DNA of 64,000 nucleotides from a virus, in the IMG/VR virus record IMGVR_UViG_3300042197_002234, positions 131,528-195,527 of that record; one strand, given 5' to 3'. Shown piece after piece: positions 35,972 through 54,289 of the stretch. How positions within the stretch are numbered: the stretch's first letter is position 1; every line of letters begins with the position of its first letter. The notes beneath the pieces were generated by a model, which did not search any database, had not been told where the DNA came from, and saw nothing but the letters and a program-made list of their open reading frames with translations. A program made the position numbers and the translations under genes.

Positions 35972-36349
35972 TTAACCCCTTTCTCGGTCAACTTTTTTAA
36001 CTTCTAAGTTAAAAGTATTTTCAAACCAATCTTTAAGGAGTTTTTCAAAAATTTCAACGCCCAAAATAGAGATTATGTTTCTAAACTCCCATTCACCATA
36101 CAATAATAAAGGAACCTCGTCTTTTGTAGCTGAATCACCCTCATATTCATGATATTGTAAAACCCATTCGTCATCTTCCCAATCCGCCTCAACATCTTTA
36201 TAAAAATTAACCACATCAATATCAGAGTATCTACCTTTTTCTTGTACCCAATAATCATAACTTTTGTCGGCACTTTCTAATAAAGAATATTCTTTCATTA
36301 AAGAGTTGAATACTGATGATAATTGATTTTGATTAATTTTTATATCCAT
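35972..36349 (-). CDS. W[VF]E-family small protein, array-less paralog
   Basis: C-terminus LLKDWFENTFNLEVKKVD; start reassigned to MDIKINQ after GTATTTAT. Confidence 0.65.
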   Translation of the reverse strand: MDIKINQNQLSSVFNSLMKEYSLLESADKSYDYWVQEKGRYSDIDVVNFYKDVEADWEDDEWVLQYHEYEGDSATKDEVPLLLYGEWEFRNIISILGVEIFEKLLKDWFENTFNLEVKKVDRERG

Positions 36350-36423
36350 AACAATAAATACTTTAAAAAACAAAAACCCCACCTTGTGAGTGGGGATTAG
36401 GTAATTTAGTATGTAAAAATAAA

Positions 36424-36597
36424 TTAAGCCTTAGCTTTTTCAACAACTGACCAAATAGTACCAACTAGTGTAATAACACCACCGATAATTTCAGAAGCAA
36501 TTGTTTCATCAATTAGTCCTTTAGTAATTAAAACACCACCCACAAATGTTAAAGTGTGTCTTACAATTCCAAGTACTTGTTCTTTAGTTAATTTCAT
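36424..36597 (-). CDS. 57-aa 2-TM holin-like protein (not in ORF track)
   Basis: Manual translation MKLTKEQVLGIVRHTLTFVGGVLITKGLIDETIASEIIGGVITLVGTIWSVVEKAKA. Confidence 0.6.
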   Translation of the reverse strand: MKLTKEQVLGIVRHTLTFVGGVLITKGLIDETIASEIIGGVITLVGTIWSVVEKAKA

Positions 36598-36647
36598 AAT
36601 TTTGTTTTTTTTGTTACGTTTATTAGTTTTATATAAATATCTCTTAA

Positions 36648-37472
36648 CTAACTAATTTTCAATTTAGTTCTGTCATACCCCATATTTTCCCACAAATCAA
36701 AAATTTCTTCTTTAAGTTTTCTATTACTTTCCCATCTGGAATGTCCTGTAAATTTTAATTTAAAATAAACGTATCTTTCATCTGTTGAATAAGACATTGA
36801 ATGTAAAGTGTAATAGTTTGGTAGCTTTTTTATCTCGGGTCTTATTTGTGTTTTATATATTACATCAAACTTATCTTGACCTTTTATTGTATTATATGCA
36901 ATTGTTTTTAAATTACCATGAACCGCACTACCAAATTTAGTACCCATAAAATTAGTCATAAAATCTAATATTCTTTTATTATAATGTAAGTAACCCAAAA
37001 ACTCTTCTTTAGATTTTAACATTTCAATATAGTCTAAAGTATATTCAAACTTAATAATGTATGGTTCGTCTTCGATAATAGTTAGTGTTACGTAATCAGG
37101 TAATTTTACTTGAGCTAAAGATAATTTGAACGCCTTTTCGTATTTTTTAGTAAACTTAACCTTTGGTTGTAGTGTTGGTAGTTTTTTAATCTTTTTATCA
37201 AAGATAAACCTACCTAATTCTATTAATTTTCTATTATTACCACCGTAAACCGTGTTTGAATAATTTATTTCTTCTTTAAACCGTTCAAAATAATTTGTAA
37301 CTAAAAGCGAAAGAGGATATCTTGATGTTTTACTATCAATATTTTTTTTAATCCATTCTCGAAAAACAATAACACCTAATTCGAAAAAATCTTCATCATC
37401 GTATCCAGATGAATCTTCTTTGAGTATATTACTCAGTATCTTGTATTGATATTCATTAACAATTAACTTCAT
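36648..37472 (-). CDS. Hypothetical protein with MKLIVNE leader
   Basis: 274 aa; ATATTTAT upstream. Confidence 0.65.
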   Translation of the reverse strand: MKLIVNEYQYKILSNILKEDSSGYDDEDFFELGVIVFREWIKKNIDSKTSRYPLSLLVTNYFERFKEEINYSNTVYGGNNRKLIELGRFIFDKKIKKLPTLQPKVKFTKKYEKAFKLSLAQVKLPDYVTLTIIEDEPYIIKFEYTLDYIEMLKSKEEFLGYLHYNKRILDFMTNFMGTKFGSAVHGNLKTIAYNTIKGQDKFDVIYKTQIRPEIKKLPNYYTLHSMSYSTDERYVYFKLKFTGHSRWESNRKLKEEIFDLWENMGYDRTKLKIS

Positions 37473-37645
37473 TTAAAGTATCTATGTTATATAAATATTC
37501 AGTAAATCAAGTTTATTACAATAAATAAGACAGTATAAAAGCCGTTAATCCACCACACATTAAAGCGTATATAATATTGTCTTGGTTTTTAATTAAAAAT
37601 CGTTTGTATTTCATAACACAAATATAAAAATAAAGTAGATAAACT

Positions 37646-37972
37646 TCAATTATTTGTGTCTATAATTTGATTAATATATAATTCTACTTTTGGTAACCAC
37701 TCATTAATCATGTATTGCAACTCACCTATTATATTATCAAATTCCTCTCTATCTGAATTTCGATACAAATCAACATAAACTTTTATTTTACTGTAAGGAA
37801 CGATTCTATCAATTATAATTTTATCAATAGAACTAAGTTCGTTGTATTCATCAATTTCACCTAACCCCCATTCTTCAGACTCTTCTCGAATAATATTTAA
37901 TTGGGAGTCTATTAAACCCTGTATAATACTACTAAGTTTGTCTAATTGTTTATCGGTGATTTCAATATTCAT
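37646..37972 (-). CDS. Hypothetical protein with MNIEITDKQL leader
   Basis: GTATTTAT upstream. Confidence 0.6.
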   Translation of the reverse strand: MNIEITDKQLDKLSSIIQGLIDSQLNIIREESEEWGLGEIDEYNELSSIDKIIIDRIVPYSKIKVYVDLYRNSDREEFDNIIGELQYMINEWLPKVELYINQIIDTNN

Positions 37973-38006
37973 TACATATAAATACTTTTTATTTTAAAAA
38001 CAATTA

Positions 38007-38372
38007 CTACACGTTAATAAAAGTTGCCCCTGAAACTACCGCAACTGATTTTACCTCATATTCCCTATATATGTATTTATATTCATCGATACCCTTTTTT
38101 TTCCAATATATTTTAATTTTAATATCAGGTAAAAAACTATCTAACACATCATAAAACCCAAGGTCGACAGTGTATTCATCAATAGTCATAACTATTTTAT
38201 CATCCCTCATAAACTTAAAAACAGGAGTAAATCTGTTTGGGTCATAAACCATAACAAATTCCTCTTTTATGTGTATTGAGTATTCACCATCCTTAACTCC
38301 AACAATCGGTGTTAACTCATGGTAGTCAATTTTAAACAATCTCTCAATTATAGGTATTAGTTTATCATTCAT
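38007..38372 (-). CDS. Hypothetical protein
   Basis: 121-aa ORF. Confidence 0.55.
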   Translation of the reverse strand: MNDKLIPIIERLFKIDYHELTPIVGVKDGEYSIHIKEEFVMVYDPNRFTPVFKFMRDDKIVMTIDEYTVDLGFYDVLDSFLPDIKIKIYWKKKGIDEYKYIYREYEVKSVAVVSGATFINV

Positions 38373-38616
38373 GTGGTATTATTTTTCTATCCGAAAATGA
38401 ATTAATGTTCACATATTCTTCATTTAAATACTCAATAATTTGTGACATTAATTCTGATTCATTTTTGGAACTACGAATACATAATGCTAAAGCACCTGAA
38501 AGTATTTTAGCCATTTCATCTGTTGTTGTTTTTTCACCTTCAGGTAATAGTATATTAAAATAAGCTCTTTCACCGTCGTGTTTAAAATCAACAACAATTC
38601 GTTTTGTTATTTCCAT
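38365..38616 (-). CDS. Hypothetical protein
   Basis: 83-aa ORF. Confidence 0.55.
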   Translation of the reverse strand: MEITKRIVVDFKHDGERAYFNILLPEGEKTTTDEMAKILSGALALCIRSSKNESELMSQIIEYLNEEYVNINSFSDRKIIPHE

Positions 38617-38642
38617 AGAATAAAAATAACAAAATAATAAAA

Positions 38643-38831
38643 CTATGTCAATTTTTTTAAAGACATAAGACTAGGTATAATATCCCCCAATCTAACATTT
38701 AAACTAATACCATCTTTTTTTAGTTGAACATATAGTTCAGGATTATTGGGAATGAAATAAACATTCCCTATTTCATATTTTTCTTTTTTGTAGGTTATAA
38801 TCTGACCTTCAATTATGTGCGCATCTCTCAT
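38643..38831 (-). CDS. Hypothetical protein
   Basis: Divergent ATATTTAT motif at 38837-38844. Confidence 0.55.
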   Translation of the reverse strand: MRDAHIIEGQIITYKKEKYEIGNVYFIPNNPELYVQLKKDGISLNVRLGDIIPSLMSLKKLT

Positions 38832-38866
38832 GGATTATAAATATATTATTATCTATATTTATAGAT

Positions 38867-39361: not shown

Positions 39362-39670
39362 TCCTTTACAACCCTCTTCGGATTTTGTTACTACTACCAC
39401 AACAGTCTCAACAGGAATAAAACTCTTAACGAAATTACTAATCTTAGTTTCAATACCCGACGTAAAATATTTGTTAACTAAGGCAAGAATTACTATTGTT
39501 TCATTATTTAAATAACTTGTGGTTACCACCGCAGTATCACAAACATTTTTAGCACCTAAAAATTGTACAACCATTTTTTCTATAGAGTCATCATACTTAC
39601 CCTTTTCAATATTTTCTTTATTGAATTTGGTAATTTCAAATAATTGATTCTCAGTTATAATGATTTTCAT
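39344..39670 (-). CDS. MKIIITE-leader hypothetical protein
   Basis: Leader plus ATATTTAT upstream. Confidence 0.65.
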   Translation of the reverse strand: MKIIITENQLFEITKFNKENIEKGKYDDSIEKMVVQFLGAKNVCDTAVVTTSYLNNETIVILALVNKYFTSGIETKISNFVKSFIPVETVVVVVTKSEEGCKGLSEVN

Positions 39671-39739
39671 ATTGATAAATATGACTTAAAAAGGAATTAC
39701 TCTTTTTACTTGGATTATATTTATAGTTAAACTAAGTTG

Positions 39740-40162
39740 ATGAACATAATTTTAACTTTATTATTGATTTTTAGTTTAATATCGTCTAAAGGTCAGGAAA
39801 TTGTTCCGTCAGTTACCGTAAATAATAAAGGTACTGCAGTACAATTATATTATCAGGAAATATTTAAGGAGGGTGATTTTAAATTTGGACCGAGAGTTGG
39901 TGTAACTTATCACCCGATAAACACAACTTGGTCACATTTTTATTGGCAAAATATTATTGAGTATAAAGGGGTATTTTTTTCACCATTTTGGTTAAGAAGT
40001 TATAACAAATCGATTGGGTATCAAATCCCAACAACTTTGGGTTACAAAGGTGAAACAAATATCGCAGACATTGAAGTGTGGGGTAACTATGTATATCACG
40101 CACGTACTTTTGATTTACACATTGTTATCTCACCTAAAAAACAAAGAATCCCTCTTAATTAA
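39740..40162 (+). CDS. Secreted beta-rich protein
   Basis: Signal peptide; alternating aromatic beta-strand pattern. Confidence 0.55.
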   Translation: MNIILTLLLIFSLISSKGQEIVPSVTVNNKGTAVQLYYQEIFKEGDFKFGPRVGVTYHPINTTWSHFYWQNIIEYKGVFFSPFWLRSYNKSIGYQIPTTLGYKGETNIADIEVWGNYVYHARTFDLHIVISPKKQRIPLN

Positions 40163-40290
40163 AGTTCGCACCATCCAAGACAAACTTTACCGAATGTGAT
40201 TTTTTTAACAAATTTACATAAACACTTTTTCATATTACATTTTTATAGATTTTTATTTTACACTTTGCAAGGTTTTTACTTTACAGATTA

Positions 40291-40656
40291 TTAATAATGG
40301 TCAACGGTTTTAACCTCTTCATTAAAATTATTTTCAAACCATTTGGCCATAACAGGTTTCCATCTATTACCAAATAACCCAAACAGACTACTAACCAAAT
40401 TTTCATCCTCAACCATTAGTATTGGTGACAATTTTTTTCTAAAATCATCATCATTGTACCAATAATCTTCTTTGTAAATACGAAAAATTGTATTGTCGTC
40501 ACCATAATCACCAAGATAATATTGAATTGCATTATCTGATTCATTATACTCATCATCAATATAATAAGTGTAATTAATATCATTAAAGTCATAATACTTG
40601 TCTAAGTAATCGACAATAACCTGAGTTAACTTATCTTCAGTGATAATAATTTTCAT
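40291..40656 (-). CDS. MKIIITE-leader W[VF]E-family protein, array-less
   Basis: C-terminus AKWFENNFNEEVKTVDHY; start reassigned. Confidence 0.7.
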   Translation of the reverse strand: MKIIITEDKLTQVIVDYLDKYYDFNDINYTYYIDDEYNESDNAIQYYLGDYGDDNTIFRIYKEDYWYNDDDFRKKLSPILMVEDENLVSSLFGLFGNRWKPVMAKWFENNFNEEVKTVDHY

Positions 40657-40738
40657 ATAACAATAAATAGTTTGTTTACAGTAAACGTTTACTGTAAACA
40701 AAAATCCCCTCTTTGTGGAGGTAGATTATTTTTTTAAA

Positions 40739-41083
40739 TTAGTTTAAATTTATTTTTACACCACCACCTGGTAATTCCGTACAACTCCATTTACCATTCT
40801 CAATCCCAACATTTTTCTCGTTCCATTTAGTCCAAGTACCGTCAGGTTCAAGGTCAATGGTTACACCACCTTTATCACCAAAAGTGGCACCTTGACTTGG
40901 TATATTTTCAATAAAACTTAAAAAAGGGTAATCACCTAGTTTATATCCAGACTTAAACGTTTTAGATAACTTATCCCAAGGAACTCTACATCCTATTGTC
41001 GTACTTTGCGACTGTTCTTCAGAAATAACTCGTTTAACAATTCTAATTAAATCTGTTTCTGTTAATCTTACAATTTTTGACAT
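40739..41083 (-). CDS. MSKIVRLTE-leader hypothetical protein
   Basis: Leader shared with 44413-44808. Confidence 0.65.
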   Translation of the reverse strand: MSKIVRLTETDLIRIVKRVISEEQSQSTTIGCRVPWDKLSKTFKSGYKLGDYPFLSFIENIPSQGATFGDKGGVTIDLEPDGTWTKWNEKNVGIENGKWSCTELPGGGVKINLN

Positions 41084-41091
41084 AATATTTT

Positions 41092-41442
41092 TTATATATA
41101 AATATTAATTAAATCATCAATTTTTAATCCCAAGGGGGGGATTCCAAGATATTCCATAATGTCATCTTCAGAATACAGTCTATCTCTATTATCTGTAATC
41201 GTGACACGTACAAAATTACTATCACCTTGATTTTGGTATAAGAATTTACCTTTAGGTGTTTCAATAACATACATTGGGCCAAAATTATTTAAATAACGGC
41301 TTAGCATTCTTGACCTAATATAACTAAATTCTTTAGGTAATTCATATTCGTTGGTCACCATATGAATTTTATCGGTCAGGTCAATACCTAATCTGTTCTC
41401 AATGAAATTTTTTAACTTATTCTCGGTGATTATTAACTTCAT
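41092..41442 (-). CDS. MKLIITE-leader hypothetical protein
   Basis: Start reassigned to MKLIITENKL. Confidence 0.65.
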   Translation of the reverse strand: MKLIITENKLKNFIENRLGIDLTDKIHMVTNEYELPKEFSYIRSRMLSRYLNNFGPMYVIETPKGKFLYQNQGDSNFVRVTITDNRDRLYSEDDIMEYLGIPPLGLKIDDLINIYI

Positions 41443-41603
41443 ACATATAAATAGCGTGAAATTAATAAACGCGGCGGGGAGGGGGTCGATTTTTAAGATG
41501 AATACCAAACAACCCGAAGGGGTCGGGGACGGACGACAAAAAATATACCGACGAAAGTCGGGTTCGGTTTATGCTGCCCCATTAAAAGTATGATTTTTTT
41601 ATC

Positions 41604-41777
41604 TTAATATTGTTCAAGCCAATTATTATACCACTTATCATTCCCCACATTTTCAAAAAACTCTTCTCTGTTTTTCTTAAACTCCTCAGAACATTTGGTA
41701 TGAACAAAATCACCATCTCCAACATGTTCCATTAGAGATTCATTTTCAATTTCTTTTTTACAGTGAAAACATTTCAT
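41604..41777 (-). CDS. 57-aa putative zinc-binding protein (not in ORF track)
   Basis: Manual translation MKCFHCKKEI...VHTKCSEEF; CxxC and HxxC; directly downstream of the tRNA-like gene. Confidence 0.55.
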   Translation of the reverse strand: MKCFHCKKEIENESLMEHVGDGDFVHTKCSEEFKKNREEFFENVGNDKWYNNWLEQY

Positions 41778-41794
41778 AACTTATATTTTAGTAG

Positions 41795-41914
41795 TAGTCA
41801 GGACAGGATTCGAACCTGTATGAAGAGTATGTGTGTCTCTTCTCCTATGGGTTTACCTCAAGGGTTTCCACCTGCCATCGCACGTTGTAGCGTCTACCAT
41901 TCCGCCACCTGACT
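41795..41914 (-). tRNA. Atypical tRNA-like RNA, 120 nt, no canonical anticodon arm
   Basis: Acceptor stem AGTCAGG/CCTGACT+A; D-arm GCGGAATGGTAGACGC; T-arm ACAGGTTCGAATCCTGT; about 70-nt central region; TATCTTTG promoter 41921-41928. Confidence 0.7.
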
Positions 41915-41957
41915 TGAATACAAAGATAGTACAGAATTTTGAATTTTCAAAATTTTT

Positions 41958-42335
41958 TTAATACCAATGGAACCAAACATTATTTACGTCCCAACCGTAG
42001 TGTCTCTTGGCAAACACTTTAATTAGATTATTAAAAGAATCTCTGGATGACTTATCTTTGTTAATTAAATTATGAACATTTAAAAACGGTAAGTTTGTAG
42101 AATTAAATAAGTCATCAATAAAATTAACTCCAACATAAAACTCTTTTCTTTCCCAATCATAATAAAATAATAAGTTTTCGTCATCCTCACTATCAAATAC
42201 TTCGGTATGGTCAATAGATTCAGAATAAGACTCGTAATTTTCAGGGTAAAACAAATACAATAACTTATACAAAACATCAGACTTTTTTTCCAAGTCCAAT
42301 AAATTAACTTGGTTTTCAGTTATAATGATTTTCAT
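41958..42335 (-). CDS. MKIIITE-leader protein, distant W[VF]E-family member
   Basis: Leader; C-terminus KVFAKRHYGWDVNNV. Confidence 0.65.
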   Translation of the reverse strand: MKIIITENQVNLLDLEKKSDVLYKLLYLFYPENYESYSESIDHTEVFDSEDDENLLFYYDWERKEFYVGVNFIDDLFNSTNLPFLNVHNLINKDKSSRDSFNNLIKVFAKRHYGWDVNNVWFHWY

Positions 42336-42715
42336 ACATATAAATATGATAGTTGTAACGGGATGTTCAACGTAGGTCCATCAACTATATAAACTGGTTC
42401 GTAGTAACTCGCCTTCCTTTGTAGGGTATGTTCAACCCACTTAACTATGAGTTCTTGAACTTCAGATTCTTGAAATCCAGTCATGGATGATAAAAATGAC
42501 CCAGTCATGGATGATAAAAATGATATTAAGTCATATGAAATATAACACGCGTCATCTTTATCAAACCTAATTTCAGCATATTCATCACCAATATTCTTAA
42601 CAAAATAAATCCTATCTTTAATTTCCACAAGATTATAATTCTTATTGTTTAATAACATAAAGATAAAACTCTTCTTAACATCCAATTCCTGATTTTCTGT
42701 TATAATTATTTTCAT
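42332..42715 (-). CDS. W[VF]E-family protein with C-terminal repeat-spacer unit
   Basis: Paralog of 43283 and 43645 ORFs; internal 24-nt duplication (SFLSSMTG x2). Confidence 0.75.
   Translation of the reverse strand: MKIIITENQELDVKKSFIFMLLNNKNYNLVEIKDRIYFVKNIGDEYAEIRFDKDDACYISYDLISFLSSMTGSFLSSMTGFQESEVQELIVKWVEHTLQRKASYYEPVYIVDGPTLNIPLQLSYLYV
42360..42436. CRISPR. Mini-array unit 1: partial repeat, 29-nt spacer, diverged 36-nt repeat
   Basis: Partial repeat 42360-42371; spacer 42372-42400; repeat 42401-42436 GTAGTAACTCGCCTTCCTTTGTAGGGTATGTTCAAC (6 mismatches to consensus). Confidence 0.55.
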
Positions 42716-42738
42716 ACATATAAATATGTTAGTTATAG

Positions 42739-42816
42739 GGTATGTTCAACACTCAGGTTAGCCTTTACTGTTCCTTTTGGGTTGTATCTCACCTCCATTT
42801 GTAAGTTATATTCAAT
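42739..42816. CRISPR. Mini-array unit 2, not attached to a family ORF
   Basis: Partial repeat 42739-42750; 30-nt spacer 42751-42780; repeat 42781-42816 (first 25 nt perfect, 3 mismatches after). Confidence 0.65.
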
Positions 42817-42997
42817 TTTTCCCAACATTACGTCTAAGTGGTTCTTTTTTGAAGAAGTACCCTGATATATCTACATAAGGTAATACCTCTCGGTCTCCTT
42901 CAATTGTGGTTGTACCATTTTTACCTTTTAACATCACAATTTTATATCCAAATTTGTTGGATAACCATTTGATAAATTTTACGTGTAATCTTTTCAT
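42812..42997 (-). CDS. Hypothetical protein
   Basis: 61-aa ORF; stop codon falls inside the repeat at 42781-42816. Confidence 0.55.
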   Translation of the reverse strand: MKRLHVKFIKWLSNKFGYKIVMLKGKNGTTTIEGDREVLPYVDISGYFFKKEPLRRNVGKN

Positions 42998-43000
42998 AAT

Positions 43001-43132
43001 TTAATTTATTTTAAGTTTTTTAGTAGTAATTTTTACTGAACCGTTTGTAATTGAGTTCATAATTTTTTGACATTCATTCCAGTTTTTACAATTAGTCAAA
43101 TCTACAGTAATTAAATTTCTTTCTTTTTTCAT
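43001..43132 (-). CDS. 43-aa hypothetical protein (not in ORF track)
   Basis: Manual translation MKKERNLITVDLTNCKNWNECQKIMNS...; TAAATTTG promoter 43164-43171. Confidence 0.5.
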   Translation of the reverse strand: MKKERNLITVDLTNCKNWNECQKIMNSITNGSVKITTKKLKIN

Positions 43133-43232
43133 ACAAATTTTAATTGTTTTAATATATGACAAACAAATTTACGAATAAAAACTGAATATAACAAATGATA
43201 AACAACATTAAAACGATTGTTTATCATCAGAC

Positions 43233-43375
43233 GGTATGTTCAACTTCCAATGACAAAGGGTATAATCGAAATGTGTTGTATCTCACCTCCATTTGTAAGG
43301 TATGTTCAACAACGGAAAATTGTCGATGTTCTTGACCATGTTGTATCTCACCTCCATTTGTAAGGTATGTTCAAC
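43233..43375. CRISPR. Mini-array 3: two perfect 36-nt repeats plus partial repeat, spacers 30 and 29 nt
   Basis: GTTGTATCTCACCTCCATTTGTAAGGTATGTTCAAC at 43275-43310 and 43340-43375; partial 43233-43244; spacers 43245-43274 and 43311-43339. Confidence 0.8.
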
Positions 43376-43630
43376 CCAGTTACCTATAAGTTCTTGAACT
43401 TCAGACCATTTAAACCCAGTCAAGGATGATAAAAATGATATTAAGTCATATGAAATATAACACGCGTCATCTTTATCAAACCTAATTTCAGCATATTCAT
43501 CCCCAATCTTTTTAACAAAATAAATATTATTGTTAATCTCAATAAGATTATAATTCATATTGTTTAATAACATGAAGATAATTTTCTTTTTAATATCCAA
43601 TTCCTGACTTTCAGATATGATGATTTTCAT
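43283..43630 (-). CDS. W[VF]E-family protein ending inside mini-array 3
   Basis: C-terminus WVEHTLQMEVRYN-(spacer)-LNIPYKWR; stop codon lies in the second repeat. Confidence 0.75.
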   Translation of the reverse strand: MKIIISESQELDIKKKIIFMLLNNMNYNLIEINNNIYFVKKIGDEYAEIRFDKDDACYISYDLISFLSSLTGFKWSEVQELIGNWVEHTLQMEVRYNMVKNIDNFPLLNIPYKWR

Positions 43631-43644
43631 GTAATATAAATATG

Positions 43645-43989
43645 TTAGTTATAGGGTATGTTCAACCATGAATCCAACTGTGCTTTTTTCAGTGGGTTGG
43701 ATTTCACCTCCATTTGTAAGGTATGTTCAACCCAGTTACCTATAAGTTCTATAACTTCATGCCTTAGGAACCCAGTCATGGTTGACAAAAATGAGATAAA
43801 TTTATGTGATATCAAACACGCACCATTACTTTTATTAAATCTAATATCACCTTTTTCATCCCCAATCTTTTTAACAAAATAAATATTATTGTTAATCTCA
43901 ATAAGATTATAATTCATATTGTTTAATAACATGAAGATAATTTTCTTTTTAATATCCAATTCCTGACTTTCAGTTATAATAATTTTCAT
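43645..43989 (-). CDS. W[VF]E-family protein with C-terminal repeat-spacer unit
   Basis: MKIIITESQELD start; WVEHTLQMEVKSN-(spacer)-LNIPYN. Confidence 0.75.
   Translation of the reverse strand: MKIIITESQELDIKKKIIFMLLNNMNYNLIEINNNIYFVKKIGDEKGDIRFNKSNGACLISHKFISFLSTMTGFLRHEVIELIGNWVEHTLQMEVKSNPLKKAQLDSWLNIPYN
43655..43731. CRISPR. Mini-array unit 4
   Basis: Partial repeat 43655-43666; 29-nt spacer 43667-43695; repeat 43696-43731 with 2 mismatches. Confidence 0.7.
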
Positions 43990-44324: not shown

Positions 44325-44412
44325 ATACATAAATATCGGACAGTCCGAAATAATGTCCAATAAAAAACCCCCAACATAAGAAGGGGGTTTATATTTTAAT
44401 TGTTAATTTATT

Positions 44413-44808
44413 TTAGTCTTCAAATGGGTCAGGAAAATCCATTCCTTCAATGGTGTCATAAAAATAATCAACCGTTCCTTCAATCATATCACTTGCGATT
44501 ATTTCTAATTCATTTAAGGTTTCATCAGATAAATCTTCCTCCTCCATGAAATTCATAAATAACTTATCAAGGTCGTATTGCATTTTATTTACATATACAT
44601 CAATATCATATGTTCCTCTAATGTGACCGTTTTCCAAATCTATTTCAAATAAGTTAACCACATTATTTATCACCTCTTCAATAAACTCTACATAATTCTC
44701 AGTTGGCAATGGAGGTAACATATCATAATCCTCATCTTCGTTTTCTTTAATTACTCTTTTTACGATACGAGCCAAATCGGCTTCGGTTAGTCTAACAATC
44801 TTTTTCAT
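44413..44808 (-). CDS. MKKIVRLTE-leader acidic protein
   Basis: Leader shared with 40739-41083. Confidence 0.65.
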   Translation of the reverse strand: MKKIVRLTEADLARIVKRVIKENEDEDYDMLPPLPTENYVEFIEEVINNVVNLFEIDLENGHIRGTYDIDVYVNKMQYDLDKLFMNFMEEEDLSDETLNELEIIASDMIEGTVDYFYDTIEGMDFPDPFED

Positions 44809-44838: not shown

Positions 44839-45180
44839 TTACAAAACTTTCCCATCTATAAGAACCTCATCAACATTAAAGTCGGATGACCAATCATAAT
44901 CATACGGAAACTTATCGGGTTCACAACAATTTCCAGTTTCAACATTCATCCTTGATTCAACCCAATGTTTAATCGGTTCTATTTTTTTCATCTCCATGGA
45001 AAGACATAAATAAATTGGTTTAAAAAAATCATAGTTCCACCAAGTGTATTTTGTTTTGGTATAATAAGATATAACCCATTCTTTTGTTTTTGGGTTAATT
45101 AACCAAATATGATTTTCGTGACCATAGACCAAGCAATCTTTGGTCATACCATCAATCATTTTAAAAAACGCGTTTTCCAT
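44839..45180 (-). CDS. W[VF]E-family protein, array-less
   Basis: KHWVESRMNVE; paralogous to 45161-45565; start ATG lies in the terminal partial repeat of array 5. Confidence 0.65.
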   Translation of the reverse strand: MENAFFKMIDGMTKDCLVYGHENHIWLINPKTKEWVISYYTKTKYTWWNYDFFKPIYLCLSMEMKKIEPIKHWVESRMNVETGNCCEPDKFPYDYDWSSDFNVDEVLIDGKVL

Positions 45181-45565
45181 TCAACACCTCTTCCACCCGT
45201 TCCCTACTTTGGAACCAACACAGTAAAGGTGTATTCACCTTGCAATTCAACACCTCTTCCACCTCCAACTCTAAAACGATGGTAGAATAAGGAGGTGTAT
45301 TCACCTTGCAATTCAACACCTCTTCCACCCACTCAGATATAATGGGTTCAAAATCATGTCGTTCAAATGAAAACCAAACAAAAAAATTATGAAAGAATGA
45401 ATGCCTCCACCATAGAGTTCCATCATTTTTATATTCAAAATACCAATACTTATTTTTCCTATCAATAAACCATATGGAATCATTGTATGGTATTATCTCA
45501 ACCTTAGATAATTCTTTATAAAGTTTCTTGAATATAGTATCTTTTAACTTGTTTGATATTTTCAT
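45161..45565 (-). CDS. W[VF]E-family protein translated through mini-array 5
   Basis: VEEVLNCKVNTP x2 plus VEEVLNG, separated by unrelated 10-aa spacers. Confidence 0.75.
   Translation of the reverse strand: MKISNKLKDTIFKKLYKELSKVEIIPYNDSIWFIDRKNKYWYFEYKNDGTLWWRHSFFHNFFVWFSFERHDFEPIISEWVEEVLNCKVNTPPYSTIVLELEVEEVLNCKVNTPLLCWFQSRERVEEVLNGKRVF
45179..45329. CRISPR. Mini-array 5: second repeat type, two perfect 36-nt repeats plus partial, two 30-nt spacers
   Basis: GGTGTATTCACCTTGCAATTCAACACCTCTTCCACC at 45228-45263 and 45294-45329; partial 45179-45197; spacers 45198-45227 and 45264-45293. Confidence 0.8.
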
Positions 45566-45723
45566 AATACAATGATACTAAAATAATTTGAAATAAAAAA
45601 ACGGGAGTGTTCCCAAAAATTTTATTTTAACTTTCCGACTCATTTTATATAAGGGGGTCGTTTTTATGGGAAAATAAAAAACCCCCACCAAAAGGTTTTT
45701 GAATCAAAGATATTTAACATCAG

Positions 45724-46426: not shown

Positions 46427-46583
46427 AATTCAAATATAAAGTATGAACCCAACTTTATGAATATTTTCTCCAAAATTACAGAAAATTTTTTTTTAGGAAT
46501 TGGGGTCCAAATTAAAATGGGGGTCGTGCTCTGGGAAATAAAAAACCTCACTGTTTAGGTGGGGGTTTATAAGTATTATTTTT

Positions 46584-47465: not shown

Positions 47466-47531
47466 TATAGTTAATATAAAGTTTCCCCATATTTGTTTGG
47501 TTAAGTGGACACTATTTTGTATCTTTGTGTT

Positions 47532-47936
47532 ATGTATTCAGCGACACCATTATCTACATTAAGGAAGAAGGACCTCAGAAAGATTGGTCAGGTCTGCATT
47601 AACTATTGTATTGAGAACCTTGGGGTTAATAAAAGAAAGAAGTTACCTCTTAAGTTATCCATCAAAAAGAATCCCCATGTTGATTCTTACTTTGGGGAGT
47701 ATTGTCCTGATACCAATACCATTGTTATATTCTATGATGAGTTGATTACCCTTGGGGAGTTTACCTCTACCATTGTTCATGAGTATACTCACCACTTACA
47801 GCCAATTGCTAGTAAGTACTACAAGTTACTTAAGGAACATGGATATGATAACCATCCCCATGAAGTGGAAGCTAGAAATAATGAGAAGTTCTATAACCGT
47901 AGAGTTCTTGCTTATCTAAGAAAAAACCTTCCTTAA
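47532..47936 (+). CDS. HExxH putative metallopeptidase
   Basis: VHEYTHH...HPHEVEAR; TTTG-N20-TATCTTTG promoter ending 47527. Confidence 0.7.
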   Translation: MYSATPLSTLRKKDLRKIGQVCINYCIENLGVNKRKKLPLKLSIKKNPHVDSYFGEYCPDTNTIVIFYDELITLGEFTSTIVHEYTHHLQPIASKYYKLLKEHGYDNHPHEVEARNNEKFYNRRVLAYLRKNLP

Positions 47937-48203: not shown

Positions 48204-49224
48204 GTTAATAAATATATTATGGAACGTATAAATGTGAATAACTTTTTTATTATGAATTGGTCCTGACAGTATGACAGAGGGGAAAATTGTTGAAAACTTT
48301 TTGTTAAAAAACTTGTTTTTGTCAAAATGTCAGTCTTGCTCGATGATGGGGATAATCCCCTCACAGGGAAATCAGCTAACACAAGTTCCCACTTTTTCCC
48401 ACCATAACATACCGATTTCCTTTGTGGCTATACCGTAATGAGGATTTTTTCCCCTCTGACAATAGTCTAAACAATACTTTTTTTACTATATGTATTTCCC
48501 AGTAAATAATGTACTTAACGGTACATAGAGCGGGGAAACACGTAGTGTGTTAGAAACTAACACCCGATTACCATGAGATGTGTTAGAAATAATCTTCAAC
48601 CCCCGACTATAAGGAGGTTTAGTGGACCAATATAGACCACTTAATAGACCATTATATCACCCACCATAACAACAACTTATGGACATCTAAGACATGTGGG
48701 GGAAAGTGGGAGTGTCGAAGACCGACCACAGGGAGTTATCGTTTATATCCTTATTGTCAGGTTTCACCTGACCATGGTGATATACTATACAACTCCCTAA
48801 TTATACCATTTAGTATAATACCATAAGGTATAAAATAATATATACCCTTTAGGGTATTACTCTATACAATACCATATATATTATACCCTATCAGGTCCAT
48901 TATTGTGTTGACCATAATAAAGGGGGGGCAGTATAATGGGGGGATTTTACCGTATGGTAATAATATGACGGTAAAGTATTGGTCTATATAGGAATATTCC
49001 TGAACGGTAATATTTACTCTCGTTTTTAATACGAAGGTAATGTTTACCCACATATTCCTTTTCGTAATCCCCATTACTGTAATGACCATTACGATAAATG
49101 GAACGATGGATTAAGAAATGAAGATTCTAATGGAACGAAACGCCAGTGGAGTGGAATGGTCACGATAGTGAAGAATCTGAATTACTTAATTCATTGTTTC
49201 GTTTATCCTTATATTTATATCTAT

Positions 49225-49530
49225 ATGAAGTATATCATAACTAATAAACAACTACATAACCTAATGACTAATCACTTAAATCAATTTATGGATAGTCGTG
49301 ATGTTAGTAAGTTTGATAACTTTATTATCATTTCAGAAACTGACGAATTATATGATTTTAACAATGTTAGTATTGAATACGATTACGAAGATGGTAGATT
49401 GTTTATTGATGAACACTTTATAAACGATTTCATTTCTTGGTTCCCAGTTGGTGTAGAAAGCGCTGAGGATTTCATAAAAGATTGGTTTGAAGAAACCTTT
49501 AACGTTAAAGTAGAATATACACAATCGTAG
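49225..49530 (+). CDS. MKYIIT-leader W[VF]E-family protein, array-less
   Basis: C-terminus IKDWFEETFNVKVEY; ATATTTAT at 49211. Confidence 0.7.
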   Translation: MKYIITNKQLHNLMTNHLNQFMDSRDVSKFDNFIIISETDELYDFNNVSIEYDYEDGRLFIDEHFINDFISWFPVGVESAEDFIKDWFEETFNVKVEYTQS

Positions 49531-49531
49531 T

Positions 49532-49966
49532 ATGAAAATAGTAATCACAGAATCTAAAATGCAAAGTGCACTTCTTAAGTTACTTAAGATTACATTCCCT
49601 GGCTTTGAGGATATATACTACGATTGGGCTAACTATAATTGTGGTATGGGTGAATGTTGTGACCCTTATGCCATTGGATTTGTTCTATCCCAAAACAATT
49701 ATGACGATTACCTATTTAAGTTGGTTGAAAGTAAGTATTATGATGATGATGGTGATTACTCTAGAAACCTTAGTGATGACCTACCTGAACTCTGTTATGA
49801 GTCACCTGATGTTAGAGACCCTCGTTTTGATGTTATTATATTTTATGAAGTATTCGCTGAAGAACTTGAACAATACTTGGGACCAAAGTCTCTATGGGAA
49901 AATGAATTATTAAATTTATTAAACAGAATGTTCTTTATGGACGCTAAAACAATTTTATTTATATGA
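49532..49966 (+). CDS. MKIVITE-leader protein
   Basis: Leader; coupled to neighbours. Confidence 0.65.
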   Translation: MKIVITESKMQSALLKLLKITFPGFEDIYYDWANYNCGMGECCDPYAIGFVLSQNNYDDYLFKLVESKYYDDDGDYSRNLSDDLPELCYESPDVRDPRFDVIIFYEVFAEELEQYLGPKSLWENELLNLLNRMFFMDAKTILFI

Positions 49967-50367
49967 AATTTATTATTACTGAAAATCAACAAGAAAATAT
50001 TATAAAACAATTGGTTAAATCTAATGGGTTTAGATTTGCATCTCGTGTTGTTGGTAGTCCTGATAGAGTTATTGATATAGGATTTAATAATGACCCGAAT
50101 GAATTTTTAAAATTATTTAATGACATGAGTGTTCGTAAACTTAAATCAACACTATGGGTTTATAGTACAGATGGTCATAACATTGTATTATATAATCCTA
50201 GAAAAAAAGAAGCCACCGTAAACTATAATGATTTCTATGAAGTTCTTATTGAGGGATTTAAGCTTACGAGTCAAGAAGTTAGGTCAATAACTGAAAAGTT
50301 ATTATTGGACAATTATAAAATAAAAGTTAATAAGATTGGTTTTTTCCCTATTAATCAATCGTTATAG
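49963..50367 (+). CDS. MKFIITE-leader protein
   Basis: Leader; coupled to neighbours. Confidence 0.65.
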   Translation: MKFIITENQQENIIKQLVKSNGFRFASRVVGSPDRVIDIGFNNDPNEFLKLFNDMSVRKLKSTLWVYSTDGHNIVLYNPRKKEATVNYNDFYEVLIEGFKLTSQEVRSITEKLLLDNYKIKVNKIGFFPINQSL

Positions 50368-50373
50368 TAAAAT

Positions 50374-50703
50374 ATGAAATACATTATAACAGAATCTAAA
50401 ATTAATACGTTAATTGATAAATTTATCACACAACAGTTTGGTAAACTAAATCATGAGTTTGACGGTGATAGACTTATATTGGTTAGTGACACTGGTGAAC
50501 CTATGATTGTTATTGTGGATAGAGGTGACGGACCTGAGGTTCACGTTGATATGGATGTCTATGGTGCCATTTATAATATGTTCTCCATGAATGATTTTGA
50601 GGATATTCAGTCCTCTTTAATTAAATGGTTTCGTAAACACTATAATATATCCGTGGACGATATATTTACATTTGCCAGTGGTGAAGAAAATTATATATAT
50701 TAA
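50374..50703 (+). CDS. MKYIITE-leader W[VF]E-family-like protein
   Basis: LIKWFRKHYNISVDD C-terminus. Confidence 0.65.
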   Translation: MKYIITESKINTLIDKFITQQFGKLNHEFDGDRLILVSDTGEPMIVIVDRGDGPEVHVDMDVYGAIYNMFSMNDFEDIQSSLIKWFRKHYNISVDDIFTFASGEENYIY

Positions 50704-51540
50704 TTACCACTGTCTTTCTTCAGGAGGAAATGTATTTATATAATCCTCCACTTCCACGTAATTATCACCAATCCATTTTCTTAATTCTTTGCTAAGTTCA
50801 TATACGAACTCATCCTCACTAAGGTAACGCCAATTCTTATACTTAATAACAACCAATACTCTTTTTCTATCATTAACAATACCTACATCTGATACACTAA
50901 CTTTTACATCAGCATCAATTAACTCACAAGCACTAAATGAAATAATTTCATCATCTTCTGAGTTCATTATTTCACAAGTAAGTTTCATATCATTTACTAT
51001 ATCATCAACAAGTTTCTGAATACGTTCCCTCCTAATTTGGTATTGTGGTTTTTCAATTTCCTCATTCATGTTTCTTATTATTTTTCTTATGGATTCATAT
51101 AAGTTCGGCGAATCTTTGTTCCATTTTTTTACATCACCACTTCCTGTTCCTTCATACTTTAGAGTTATTGCTTCTTTTGGTATATCTTGAAATGTTACAA
51201 TATGTTTTTTTGTTGACTCAAAGTGTCTATCTTTATACCATTTAACATCAGGAATCATCCTTGTGTCTATAAACCATATATCATCATCGTATGATGAATC
51301 GAACCACGCTCTTTTATTTGTTGAATTGGTTGCAAATATTGCTGGTTTACATTTAACTCCATAACCCACATATATTTTATAACATTCCCCCGCCCTTACT
51401 TTAAGTCCCTGTTCCATTATCTTATCTCTAAACATTGGATTAGACTTATGAACAATAATTGAATTGGGTATGATTTCTTTCCCTGCTGGAGAATAATCAT
51501 CTTCCCTTAATATTCTTCTTATGGATTCTTGTAGGTTCAT
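50704..51540 (-). CDS. MNLQE-leader fusion protein; N-terminal ADP-ribosyltransferase-like domain
   Basis: VHKS.....DKIMEQGL...AIFAT pattern; internal second leader NLYESIRKIIR. Confidence 0.55.
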   Translation of the reverse strand: MNLQESIRRILREDDYSPAGKEIIPNSIIVHKSNPMFRDKIMEQGLKVRAGECYKIYVGYGVKCKPAIFATNSTNKRAWFDSSYDDDIWFIDTRMIPDVKWYKDRHFESTKKHIVTFQDIPKEAITLKYEGTGSGDVKKWNKDSPNLYESIRKIIRNMNEEIEKPQYQIRRERIQKLVDDIVNDMKLTCEIMNSEDDEIISFSACELIDADVKVSVSDVGIVNDRKRVLVVIKYKNWRYLSEDEFVYELSKELRKWIGDNYVEVEDYINTFPPEERQW

Positions 51541-51541
51541 A

Positions 51542-52069
51542 TTAATCTAACCATTTTGCGTTTAATCCTATATATACATTGGGTTGTATGAATCCGTCAG
51601 GGAATTGAATGAATGTTTGTGTCGTTCTATGCCACCCTTCACCTAATTCATATTTACCATCTTTGGTTTCAAATAAAATAATTGGTTCTTGTGATATGCC
51701 TTTGCTTTGAAGTAATTCTTTTTGTGTTTCGTGTCTTTCAGTATCTTTTTCCACATCTTGTCTTACTTCACCTTGAATTCTACTTTCCAATTGTTTTTTT
51801 GTGTTTTCAGTAAAAATATCCATTGACATTGGAAAATCTTTTTCATATACCCACTCTAAATCTTTTACCCATTCATCAATCCATTCTGTAATACCTTCAT
51901 ATGTGTTTACATCATCTGATTGTGTTATCATTTTATAAACCCAATCTCTTAATACATATTCAGGAGTGTTTGGTAATTTTTTTTTTAACCAATTAAACAT
52001 TCCTTGTCTTGTTTCAGTAACAATCCCCATCATTTGTCTAATTCTTTGTATGTTTTCTTGTAGGTTCAT
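51542..52069 (-). CDS. MNLQE-leader ParB/sulfiredoxin-like domain protein
   Basis: EPIILFETKDGKYELGEGWHRT. Confidence 0.6.
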   Translation of the reverse strand: MNLQENIQRIRQMMGIVTETRQGMFNWLKKKLPNTPEYVLRDWVYKMITQSDDVNTYEGITEWIDEWVKDLEWVYEKDFPMSMDIFTENTKKQLESRIQGEVRQDVEKDTERHETQKELLQSKGISQEPIILFETKDGKYELGEGWHRTTQTFIQFPDGFIQPNVYIGLNAKWLD

Positions 52070-52497
52070 ATCGTATAACAAAATTTAACTTCTAATTCTA
52101 TCTCATCCCATAATGGATTATTTTTATCCATATAGTTTTGTAATAAATAGATTGCAGATATTCTATGTGCCCCATCTTGAATTACATCATCCACAACAAT
52201 AATTGGTGGTAAGTTTCTCAACGACTTTGGATTTCGTTTCATGTATCTTGCATACTCAACAACTTTTTTGGTTACACCCCAACTATAATCGTCATTAAGA
52301 ACATCTTCTAAAACTTCTTTGTAATAAGGAATTCTTTGTATTCTACCATCTAATATTTCGTCAATTGTAAGATAATCGGTATCACAATCCATATTATCCA
52401 TTTCATAGTTTGATAATGGTTTTCCTGATGACTCACCAGGTTGTGGGACATTTAATTCTTCCCTTAATATTCTTCTTATGTTTTCTTGTAGGTTCAT
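52066..52497 (-). CDS. MNLQE-leader ParB/sulfiredoxin-like domain protein
   Basis: LPPIIVVDDVIQDGAHRISA. Confidence 0.65.
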   Translation of the reverse strand: MNLQENIRRILREELNVPQPGESSGKPLSNYEMDNMDCDTDYLTIDEILDGRIQRIPYYKEVLEDVLNDDYSWGVTKKVVEYARYMKRNPKSLRNLPPIIVVDDVIQDGAHRISAIYLLQNYMDKNNPLWDEIELEVKFCYTI

Positions 52498-52979
52498 TTC
52501 TTCGTTTTCTTTACACAATTAGGGTATCTCTTACCAAACATTGTCTTCATTCCTTTTTGGGTGTATCCTGGCCAACACTTTTCTGTTAACTCACCTTCAT
52601 TCTGTTCTTGTTTCTGTAATCTAATTGTCTTTTCCTTTGACTTTTCTTTTACAGTTTCAATATAGTCGTATGCTCTTTTTAACCTTTGTTTTGTTTCTGG
52701 GTCTTTTGCGTTTTGATATGCGGCTCTTACTCTTTGGTGTATAAGATTAATTATCTGTGATTGTCTCTTATGGGGTTTAGATTTGAAACTATCTTTGTTT
52801 AATGTATCCACGATATCCTCTTTTGTTCTAAACTTTACAGATACCGTATCATTTGGATTCTCGTCGGTATATAATCTTCTTCCTGAACCTTTGGGTTTCT
52901 TACCTGTTCCTGTCTTGGGGTCAGATTCATTCAATAGTTCTTCCCTTAATATTCTTCTTATGGATTCTTGTAGTGTCAT
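52494..52979 (-). CDS. MTLQE-leader basic protein with C-terminal CWxGY module
   Basis: SGRRLYTDENP domain; CWPGYTQKGMKTMFGKRYPNCV tail. Confidence 0.65.
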   Translation of the reverse strand: MTLQESIRRILREELLNESDPKTGTGKKPKGSGRRLYTDENPNDTVSVKFRTKEDIVDTLNKDSFKSKPHKRQSQIINLIHQRVRAAYQNAKDPETKQRLKRAYDYIETVKEKSKEKTIRLQKQEQNEGELTEKCWPGYTQKGMKTMFGKRYPNCVKKTKK

Positions 52980-52989
52980 ATTAATACTT

Positions 52990-53580
52990 TTAAAATCCTA
53001 ATTGTTTTCTTCTTTCTACAGTATCTACAATGTCCAGATAGAAATCTTCAAGGTCTCTTTCTCCTGATTTAATTTTATCAATTATTTCATCTCTTCTATA
53101 TGCCGTATTTTTATTAATAAAATCAATCATTTCTTCATCAGTAATTCCTTCAGGTTTTGTTGGTTCAGGAATACAATCATATTCTTCGGTGTAATCAATA
53201 TCCGTTATATATAAACCACTTTCTCCAGTTATTTTTTCAAATTCAGGCACCATAGTTTCATCATACCATTCCTCAATTATTTGAACTATGTATGATTTTC
53301 TCACACTAAAAAAAGATTGTAGGTCATCGATAAGTGATTCTGAAACCATTAAACTCCCATTTATGAATTCTTCGTCGTCAAAGTAATAAACTACTGTGAT
53401 GGTTTCTTTTCCGTTAACGCACCAATCTTCTCGTAAATTACCATAAGTACGAGATTTAATCCCTATTTTTCGTCTACCTTTTGAAATATACGTGTTTAAA
53501 TAATTCTTTATTGAGTCACTAATTTTGGGACTAGAAGTTAAAAACTTTTTATATTGTGTTTCAGTAATAATAAATCTCAT
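52990..53580 (-). CDS. MRFIITE-leader protein
   Basis: Start reassigned; ATATTTAT at 53609-53616 on minus strand. Confidence 0.65.
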   Translation of the reverse strand: MRFIITETQYKKFLTSSPKISDSIKNYLNTYISKGRRKIGIKSRTYGNLREDWCVNGKETITVVYYFDDEEFINGSLMVSESLIDDLQSFFSVRKSYIVQIIEEWYDETMVPEFEKITGESGLYITDIDYTEEYDCIPEPTKPEGITDEEMIDFINKNTAYRRDEIIDKIKSGERDLEDFYLDIVDTVERRKQLGF

Positions 53581-53608
53581 ATAATGTTTTCTGTTAAATT
53601 CACTATTA

Positions 53609-53627
53609 ATAAATATTCGATATTTAT
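53609..53627. promoter_or_regulatory. Back-to-back ATATTTAT motifs serving divergent leader-bearing genes
   Basis: ATAAATAT 53609-53616 and ATATTTAT 53620-53627; same layout at 38837-38862 and 7323-7345. Confidence 0.6.
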
Positions 53628-53634
53628 CTTTAAG

Positions 53635-53922
53635 ATGAAACTCATTATAAAAGAAGCACAAGTAAGTCAATTGTTAAGTGTTTATGATAGACTGATGAAC
53701 TCAGAACAGTATGATGGTGTCTGTAACATTAATATTGATTACGATGAAATTATGGATAGGTTCGTATTGAACGTGTTTTTTAATCGTAGTTTTATTATAA
53801 ATCTTGGGTCAGGAGGTCAACAGTCTCGTTACTTAAAAAAAACTTTTAATGAGATTGGTAAAAAGTTCTTATCTTTTACAAATAATAACCCGTTAATGTA
53901 CCAACACTTTTCAGATTGTTAA
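53635..53922 (+). CDS. MKLIIKE-leader protein
   Basis: Start reassigned. Confidence 0.6.
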   Translation: MKLIIKEAQVSQLLSVYDRLMNSEQYDGVCNINIDYDEIMDRFVLNVFFNRSFIINLGSGGQQSRYLKKTFNEIGKKFLSFTNNNPLMYQHFSDC

Positions 53923-53926
53923 TAAC

Positions 53927-54289
53927 ATGAAAATTATAATAACAGAGTCTAAATTAGAAGATACTATCCTTAAGTTTTTGGACAATAATAATTTTGTTGT
54001 TTATAAAGGAGGAAGAAGTTTCAACTCTTACATTTATTTTTTGGAAGATGGAGATGATAATCAAGCAATGATTAGTGTGTATCATAGAAACGCTTTTGGA
54101 GAAATTAGAAATTGGGTTTATGTTAATCCCAAACTAATTAATCGTGTAACTTTATTTGTTCCTATTGATGAAAAAGATTTTTTAAATATTGTTTCACATT
54201 GGGTGAGTAATGTTTTAAATATGAAAATAAATAGTGTTGAAAACGCATTCCGTACAGACCAAGGACATAGATTGGATGTACGTCTTTAA
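53927..54289 (+). CDS. MKIIITE-leader W[VF]E-family protein
   Basis: SHWVSNVLNMKINS...LDVRL tail, aligns loosely with repeat-spacer-LNIP tails but shows no DNA repeat. Confidence 0.65.
   Translation: MKIIITESKLEDTILKFLDNNNFVVYKGGRSFNSYIYFLEDGDDNQAMISVYHRNAFGEIRNWVYVNPKLINRVTLFVPIDEKDFLNIVSHWVSNVLNMKINSVENAFRTDQGHRLDVRL

Follow-up and report, generated by a model that had tools for sequence, protein, structure and literature searches.

Family genes and arrays in the window

We have analyzed the last 64 kb of the 195.5-kb IMG/VR virus record IMGVR_UViG_3300042197_002234; this whole stretch of 64,000 nucleotides will be called the window. The record, whose GC content is about 30% and whose completeness is estimated at 65%, belongs to a large (jumbo) lake phage which carries about 13 copies of one small gene. 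All 13 members of this family fall within positions 35972-54289. Four of them, and one orphan site, have a cluster of repeats and spacers like those of CRISPR (short palindromic repeats, clustered and regularly interspaced) arrays. The repeat starts at the codon following a conserved Trp, or one base before it. The five clusters contain seven unique spacers of 29-30 nt, unrelated to one another and to the rest of the record, and each array terminates in a truncated repeat. The preliminary description of this DNA had claimed that the end of the gene is duplicated at the DNA level together with foreign inserts, which is what the five clusters and their seven unrelated spacers confirm.

Two main types of array are present, all of them on the minus strand. 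The B-type array (45179..45329) is part of a gene coding for 134 amino acids (45161..45565), and its repeat, which encodes VEEVLNCKVNTP, is found as two exact copies and a 19-nt remnant. With the 36-nt register taken from 121 related arrays, the order is: repeat R1 (45294-45329), spacer S1 (45264-45293, 30 nt), repeat R2 (45228-45263), spacer S2 (45198-45227, 30 nt) and truncated repeat R3 (45179-45197). The array is in frame: Residues 1-88 of the protein are the family domain, and the tail is the translated array. The ATG of the next gene (45180) lies inside the 19-nt remnant.

The A-type repeat, GTTGAACATACCTTACAAATGGAGGTGAGATACAAC, encodes VEHTLQMEVRYN. It has four matches with up to three mismatches in the window, where none is expected, and an additional diverged copy is present in gene 42332. 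The A-type gene at 43283..43630 (115 amino acids) has an array at 43233..43375, with R1 at 43340-43375, a 29-nt spacer at 43311-43339, R2, identical to R1, at 43275-43310, a 30-nt spacer at 43245-43274 and a truncated 12-nt repeat at 43233-43244. The second repeat contains the end of its reading frame and is read as LNIPYKWR and a stop. A second A-type gene, 43645..43989 (114 amino acids), has one repeat (43696-43731), one 29-nt spacer (43667-43695) and a truncated repeat (43655-43666). In the A-like gene 42332..42715 (127 amino acids) the diverged repeat (42401-42436) is followed by a 29-nt spacer (42372-42400) and a truncated repeat (42360-42371).

The orphan A-type array (42739..42816) has a repeat with three mismatches (42781-42816), a 30-nt spacer (42751-42780) and a truncated repeat (42739-42750). 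Instead of a family gene, an unrelated open reading frame (ORF) of 61 amino acids (42812-42997) precedes it. The stop codon of this ORF lies within the mutated start of the orphan repeat, and its DNA is 82% identical to a hypothetical gene of Flavobacterium phage immuto. The site at 42739-42997 resembles a family gene whose body has been replaced, with its array left behind.

Other features of these genes should also be noted. At 42477-42523, gene 42332 contains a perfect 24-nt tandem duplication, which doubles the peptide SFLSSMTG; this is a duplication of the ordinary kind and has nothing to do with the units of 36 and 29 nt. At the start of the family genes (39642-43989 and 49531-53955) the DNA itself is conserved (ATGAAAATnATTATAACnGAAA, for MKIIITE), and upstream of it they have in common the word CATATTTATAT, which may be a promoter or start signal. 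The truncated last A-type repeats run directly into this word.

The family was defined by comparing all ATG-started ORFs of the record with at least 45 amino acids, all against all, by phmmer. Eleven of them form one connected group: 35972, 40291, 42332, 43283, 43645, 44839, 45161, 49156/49225, 49532, 52990 and 53927. A hidden Markov model (HMM) of these ORFs adds 50374 (E 3e-7) and 41958 (E 1e-5), which gives 13 members; faint matches beyond them are 41092 and 49963. The large family of paralogs with a W[VF]E motif suggested by the preliminary description is therefore real. Homology between members with and without arrays, set beforehand as a test of that description, is confirmed by phmmer and by profile comparison. 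It spans a whole domain of about 100 amino acids, not the C-terminus alone, and in the alignment the domain ends as W-[VF]-E-x-x-[LF]-N-x-x-V. In metagenomes the whole family comprises 907 cluster representatives, with at least eight different repeat peptides.

We have found no match for the family domain in Pfam, PHROGs or PADLOC. AlphaFold2, run with 30 homologues on the 45161 protein, gives residues 1-88 a confidence (predicted local distance difference test, pLDDT) above 90, and residues 89-134 a value below 40. The predicted fold is a helix, four strands, a helix and a further helix, while the tail encoded by the array beyond residue 88 is predicted to be disordered. The last predicted helix corresponds to residues 69-84 and includes W-VEEVL, the start of the repeat. 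No solved structure resembles this domain: E values are above 0.3 with Foldseek against the PDB, and the best Z with VIA-align is 4.9. Its matches in BFVD are only uncharacterised proteins of freshwater phages. A likeness to the MotA C-terminal domain (Pfam E 0.36; 1kaf_D, E about 1) is too faint and has not been counted as evidence.

Nine members have no array, and these were said in the preliminary description to stop just past the motif. Three of them do: 49225..49530 (plus strand, WFEETFNVKVEYT and 2 amino acids), 40291..40656 (minus, WFENNFNEEVKTV and 3) and 35972..36349 (minus, WFENTFNLEVKKV and 5). They have 14-17 residues after the Trp, that is, a motif of 12 amino acids and 2-5 more, and the 12 metagenomic homologues of 40291 are all 119-127 amino acids long. 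The other six members do not follow this rule. The residues after the Trp are 24 in 50374..50703 (plus, a weaker member with HMM E 3e-7; WFRKHYNISVDDI and 12 amino acids), 28 in 53927..54289 (plus, WVSNVLNMKINSV and 16), 40 in 44839..45180 (minus, WVESRMNVETGN) and 91 in 52990..53580 (minus), whose long C-terminal extension adds 79 amino acids to WYDETMVPEFEKI. The two remaining members lack the W[VF]E motif: 49532..49966 (plus), a divergent member linked by phmmer and HMM, and 41958..42335 (minus), a weak member (HMM E 1e-5) without Trp at the position of the motif.

The members with arrays may be recognized by their DNA. Inverted termini of 4 nt placed 36 nt apart are found in all four of them (with three of the four bases in 42332), and in none of the nine others; the 36-nt motif of 44839, for example, is without them. 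That palindromic ends of the motif predict the presence of arrays, which had been proposed as a test, holds in the window. In the W-V-E branch of the family the ends are GTTG..CAAC, or GGTG..CACC/CAAC, and the antisense strand begins with GTTGT. Among 120 representatives with a recognizable motif, long or array-type tails are found in 84 of 90 W-V proteins and 2 of 15 W-F proteins, counts which are uncorrected for shared ancestry. On the family phylogeny which had been called for, a tree of 116 domains, array state is clustered and needs at least three changes; the best tree has 10, and shuffling raises this to 18. The tree is poorly resolved, with good support for only 9 of its 113 branches. 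The simplest order of events would be gene first and array second, with arrays born on the gene, because the motif is part of the predicted fold and is present without the repeat features in paralogs which have no array.

Arrays in related phages

The picture is the same in about 1,200 metagenomic homologues. The 45161 protein has 963 of these, whose lengths step by 22 amino acids: Their tails consist of VEEVLNCKVNTx and 10 variable amino acids, repeated 2-7 times. We have fetched 85 DNA loci of this type and parsed 121 distinct arrays. Of 360 intervals between repeats, 334 measure 66 nt and two measure 65 nt. Another 14 intervals measure 57-75 nt, always a multiple of three, and the last 10 measure 132-135 nt, each of them spanning one repeat too degenerate for detection. 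Neighbouring units have an identity of 0.8-1.0 at offsets from -1 to +34 relative to the Val codon, and of 0.2-0.3 just outside. The B-type unit is formed by a 36-nt repeat, whose first base is the third of the Trp codon, and a 30-nt insert. The edges of the repeat ignore codon boundaries, which argues for a process acting on DNA.

The B-type spacers are unrelated 30-mers, and the arrays which contain them add a tail of 22-amino acid modules to the protein. They reach up to 10 units and stay open. An in-frame stop is found in only one of 278 distinct spacers, while each of the other five frames has stops in 87-137 spacers (31-49%) and only 50% of shuffled spacers are free of them. This near-absence of in-frame stops means that B arrays are kept readable, and it supports, from sequence, their translation. 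The peptides encoded by the spacers are near random in composition, with only a weak codon-like bias.

A different situation is found in the A-type arrays, for which we have compared 13 DNA loci. Most of the 212 metagenomic homologues of 43283 end in WVEHTLQMEVKYN, about 10 variable residues and LNIPYK(WR). This ending is due to the 29-nt spacer, which shifts the frame, so that the next repeat supplies the stop. Periods are 64-67 nt, with spacers of 29 nt (26 cases), 30 nt (six), 31 nt (three) and 28 nt (one). The arrays have 1-4 spacers and run on untranslated past the stop of the ORF; of the last repeat only 12-20 nt are left, followed directly by the sequence upstream of the next gene. Stops in the first spacer are rare (about 6 of 120), and past it the arrays are mostly untranslated. 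Diversification of the C-terminal peptide, which the preliminary description had offered as a purpose, is therefore not a general one, and its suggestion of a protein delivered by the virion finds no support whatever. Searches of IMG/VR with A-repeat patterns gave no match, or only two loci already known.

Repeats of other kinds, placed in this register as well, are found in further subfamilies, for example VGDILNRKVGTS, VEDTLQMEVTNT, VEEVLKRGVSST, VDEAYNLRGVTT and WLEETLKLEGYTP. Two cases in related records may be mentioned. In record G002 (about 48250-48400, locus L100), WLEETLKLEGYTP is found at the same position of a family gene, with a 29-nt spacer. In record G004 (about 12800-12960, locus L106), the repeat at this position is VDEAYNLRGVTT (GGTGGATGAAGC...TTACAAC), with a 30-nt spacer.

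Units are gained and lost rapidly. Phages whose gene bodies are 97-100% identical carry arrays which differ by whole units, so unit turnover outpaces point substitution by much. In 32 pairs of arrays, 92 of the unshared units are proximal to the gene, 40 are distal and 9 are interleaved. The pairs L029/L031, L045/L049, L044/L053 and L068/L070 share the far units and differ beside the gene. Growth has a strong bias towards the end proximal to the gene, and loss occurs anywhere. The farther a repeat lies from the gene, the less it resembles the first copy: Of 36 positions, 34.6 are identical near the gene and only about 28 far from it.

The ends of the repeat are also constrained at silent sites. 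In a set of 70 non-redundant genes, the repeat has two neighbouring Glu codons, the first being GAA in 96% and the second GAG in 100%, whereas a conserved Glu in the gene body is GAA in 36 cases and GAG in 29; the first Val of the repeat is GTG in 94%. The four-fold site of an ACA codon near the end of the repeat is A in 99%, while the next such site, one base outside the repeat, is free. Both A and B repeats end in ...ATACAAC, which is read in different frames (TAC AAC and ACA ACn). Fixed silent sites, together with a common end in differing frames, indicate that the ends of the repeat are conserved as DNA and not only as protein. A terminal stem and an internal hairpin, which characterize Cas13b repeats, are predicted for the A repeat in the gene-sense orientation (-6.5 kcal/mol, z -2.0), weakly for its other strand and not for the B repeats.

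Proposed origin of the arrays and other features of the window

CRISPR-type integration, similar to adaptation, into the coding motif of these genes is strongly supported. In the W-V-E branch of the family, the 36-nt stretch which encodes the last helix behaves like a CRISPR repeat, with the coding region in the position of a CRISPR leader. Each unit gained is an exact copy of the repeat and an unrelated insert of 29-30 nt, mostly added beside the gene body, and units are also lost. The integrase would be a host Cas1-Cas2 of the Flavobacterium II-C kind, acting in trans. This agent fits best, because the geometry is one of 36 and 29-30 nt, the ends are inverted, growth is polar and GTTGT lies away from the growing side, and we lean slightly towards it. 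Of the host Cas1-Cas2 integration put forward by the preliminary description, the CRISPR-like process stands, while its agent is something we infer.

The host is probably a member of the Bacteroidota, because the closest cultured relatives of this phage are the Flavobacterium phages immuto, and a SprB-repeat protein adjoins the A-type loci in related phages. One of the related records, G002, is labelled as a provirus, and no flank with a host-like GC content is present in it. The GC content of the spacers is 40-45%, against 30% in the phage. This difference, and the absence of matches in the related phage DNA compared (530 kb, of which 195 kb come from this phage and 335 kb from five relatives), indicate that the spacers are not copied from the phage itself.

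The phage appears to keep the sites, since their silent positions are fixed and there are many arrays per genome. Our guess, held with slightly more doubt than confidence, is that they are kept as CRISPR arrays without cas genes, which would rely on the host's Cas proteins and serve as guide sources or decoys. Being readable would then be a constraint of their position in an operon, and not a goal. The near-total avoidance of stops shows that translation through the B arrays matters, perhaps for the sake of the tail, or perhaps because the downstream gene overlaps and would suffer from polarity. A bolder suggestion, which we consider rather unlikely, is that lake jumbo phages use or tolerate spacer capture to build coding sequence, with the last helix of the small protein serving also as a repeat competent for integration and 30-mers becoming in-frame 10-residue cassettes of a growing disordered tail. 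The best overall explanation, and in our opinion a probable one, is that of CRISPR-like arrays born on a gene, filled in trans by a host integrase and having the role of an array without cas genes.

Several results weigh against this explanation. Degenerate patterns of the A and B repeats have no match in 185,579 genomes of bacterial species, although diverged host repeats could escape such a search. A host effector or trans-activating CRISPR RNA (tracrRNA) would need a matching host array, and with no match in these genomes none is known. No CRISPR-DR or other credible family was found for the repeats in Rfam, and the B-type repeats have no stable or consistent RNA fold. Protospacers are also lacking: About 370 spacers compared by blastn-short with this record, the 85 loci and five related viral records (530 kb) gave only matches at chance level, about 20 spacers (as array regions) gave only noise against the cultured phages of INPHARED, and three window spacers had no exact match in IMG/VR; these searches covered viral DNA, not bacterial genomes. 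The polarity of growth is a bias and not an absolute rule. The 10 nt before the repeat show no conservation at the DNA level beyond that of codons, so that the supposed leader is coding sequence. The near-absolute avoidance of stops in B arrays could mean that the peptides themselves are selected. Finally, the records of this phage and its relatives are only 13-65% complete, which leaves room for an integrase carried by the phage.

The last two points lead to other explanations. If the selected product were the protein, spacer capture would write 10-residue cassettes into its disordered tail, and the DNA features of the repeat would serve continued variation. This agrees with the open B arrays of up to 10 units, with the 14 intervals of 57-75 nt which deviate by multiples of three (against two of 65 nt), with the scarcity of stops in first A-type spacers and with a codon-like bias of the spacers, weak but beyond the filtering of stops (chi-square 14-22, 3 df). 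We consider it unlikely, since the A-type arrays shift the frame after their first 29-nt spacer and may have up to three more untranslated units, the spacer peptides are near random in a tail predicted to be disordered, and paralogs without arrays, which end right past the motif, indicate that the domain needs no tail. Nonsense polarity or translational coupling should also lead to avoidance of stops, because the ATG of the next gene overlaps the end of the array ORF. The phage might also encode the integrase itself, as a cas1-cas2 pair located where its genome is not sequenced or as an enzyme which we do not recognize; this is in our view improbable. In its favour, a completeness of 13-65% implies genomes of about 290-300 kb, no bacterial array with these repeats is known, and several diverged subfamilies use one repeat register. 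On the other hand, no match to Cas1, Cas2 or reverse transcriptase was found in the 195 kb of this incomplete record, nor to Cas1 or Cas2 in 335 kb of its five relatives, also incomplete, and nearly all CRISPR loci of huge phages are devoid of adaptation genes (PMC7162821).

The units might also be neutral or slightly harmful scars, left when the host integrase mistakes the motif for a leader-repeat junction; insertions with stops or a broken frame would be purged and the rest would drift. Spacers without detectable targets, the frequent loss of units and the lack of cas genes in the phage DNA examined could be explained in this way. Such a process would hardly maintain the synonymous sites which define the ends of the repeat: They are fixed in 70 non-redundant genes, though one silent change would abolish the site. 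Nor does it account for the fact that several paralogs of one genome have arrays, as do many subfamilies, so we regard it as quite improbable. As to an ordinary protein tandem repeat of 22 amino acids, produced by slippage or unequal crossing-over and with a variable half due to diversifying selection or to mutagenesis of the kind found in diversity-generating retroelements, we can hardly give it credit. A period of 66 nt is indeed 22 codons, and a conserved 12-mer followed by a variable 10-mer resembles scaffold-and-loop repeats. But the repeats of an array are identical at silent sites while spacer identity is random (0.2-0.3), the switch takes place within one base and off the codon boundary, A-type periods vary between 64 and 67 nt, and close relatives differ by whole units, not by substitutions. 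A retroelement should have a reverse transcriptase and a template: RVT_1 has no match in the 195-kb record, and no template-like similarity is found among the spacers.

The window contains other repeated features. A second set of small genes (50704-52979 and 56832-57287) has a common N-terminus, MNLQE(S/N)IRRILRE, whose DNA is conserved as well (repeat families D6, D7 and D9). A third set (40739-41083 and 44413-44808) starts with M(S)KIVRLTE(A/T)DL. An ORF of 143 amino acids among the small genes (47505-47936) has a HEYTHH motif, of the HExxH type, with no match in PADLOC. Near the end of the record (63528-63594) an 18-nt unit, TGGTGTTGGGGTAACTGT, is repeated 3.7 times with 97% identity. Hairpins of the form AAAAAACCCCC...GGGGG(T)TT recur between gene blocks (36367-36401, 44359-44393, 45673-45707 and 46537-46571) and look like intrinsic terminators.

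Significance and comparison with known systems

Integration of spacers with duplication of the repeat is not limited to non-coding CRISPR loci of cells: It appears to recur, in many related viruses, where the coding sequence of a family of phage genes has its 3' end. These genes suggest a model for the birth of arrays from existing sequence, a gene motif with short inverted ends placed 36 nt apart, and they offer a natural test bed for the target requirements of Cas1-Cas2. The family as a whole includes relatives without arrays, sequence features which predict arrays and a subfamily with 29-nt spacers whose arrays are mostly untranslated. Two ideas may be tested: that phages maintain arrays to supply guides, or as a sink for the adaptation of the host, and that captured DNA becomes new peptide sequence. 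If the latter were true, foreign DNA would be heritably written into protein, and a CRISPR array born from a gene would exist in nature.

Mini-arrays in phages, RNA anti-CRISPRs, adaptation in trans and off-target integration have all been described, but we have found in the literature no arrays nested in phage genes and translated with them. The arrays have several features of CRISPR arrays in general: unique spacers of near-constant length (29-30 nt) between 36-nt repeats, polar gain and decay of the distal repeats. On the other hand, they have no non-coding AT-rich leader, as the growing end adjoins the coding region, and no Cas1 or Cas2 was found in the incomplete records of this phage and of five relatives. 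Nivala, Shipman and Church reportedly observed in 2018 that ectopic integration at a repeat-like site in E. coli duplicates the flank and seeds a new array, as a rare and experimental event. In our case, that of a gene family in a virus, it occurs in nature and repeatedly, and the resulting state is apparently maintained.

The closest comparison is with Flavobacterium columnare, whose II-C and VI-B repeats measure 36 bp and have a common leader-distal GTTGT (Hoikkala et al. 2021, PMC8092290). In this species the II-C Cas1-Cas2 fills in trans, with 30-nt spacers, a VI-B (Cas13b) array which has no cas1 (PMC8092290). The phage arrays are similar to this VI-B array in their 36-nt repeat, their spacers of about 30 nt, their GTTGT far from the growing end, the absence of adaptation genes of their own and a host which likely belongs to the same group, the Bacteroidota. 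The antisense strand of the A repeat is GTTGTATCTC..., and the B consensus ends in ...ACAAC at 80-99%. They differ from it in being placed inside an ORF, with a repeat which encodes part of a folded domain and a coding sequence in place of a leader. One phage subfamily is translated through the whole array, and no host array with the same repeat has been found.

RNA anti-CRISPRs and solitary repeat units (Camara-Wilpert et al. 2023, PMC10651486) are also CRISPR-like repeats in phages, without cas genes and often with a single spacer. They are non-coding mimics of a known host repeat, whereas the repeats described here are coding, have no host match and are renewed by acquisition. Compact arrays in huge phages are usually devoid of cas1, cas2 and cas4, and often of effectors (Al-Shayeb et al. 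2020, PMC7162821). Our case is similar: a phage estimated at about 300 kb, with arrays of 1-10 units, no adaptation genes seen and a presumed dependence on host Cas proteins. The arrays of huge phages are intergenic and have host-like repeats (PMC7162821), while those described here are found at the 3' ends of a multi-copy gene family, with several arrays per genome, and can be in frame.

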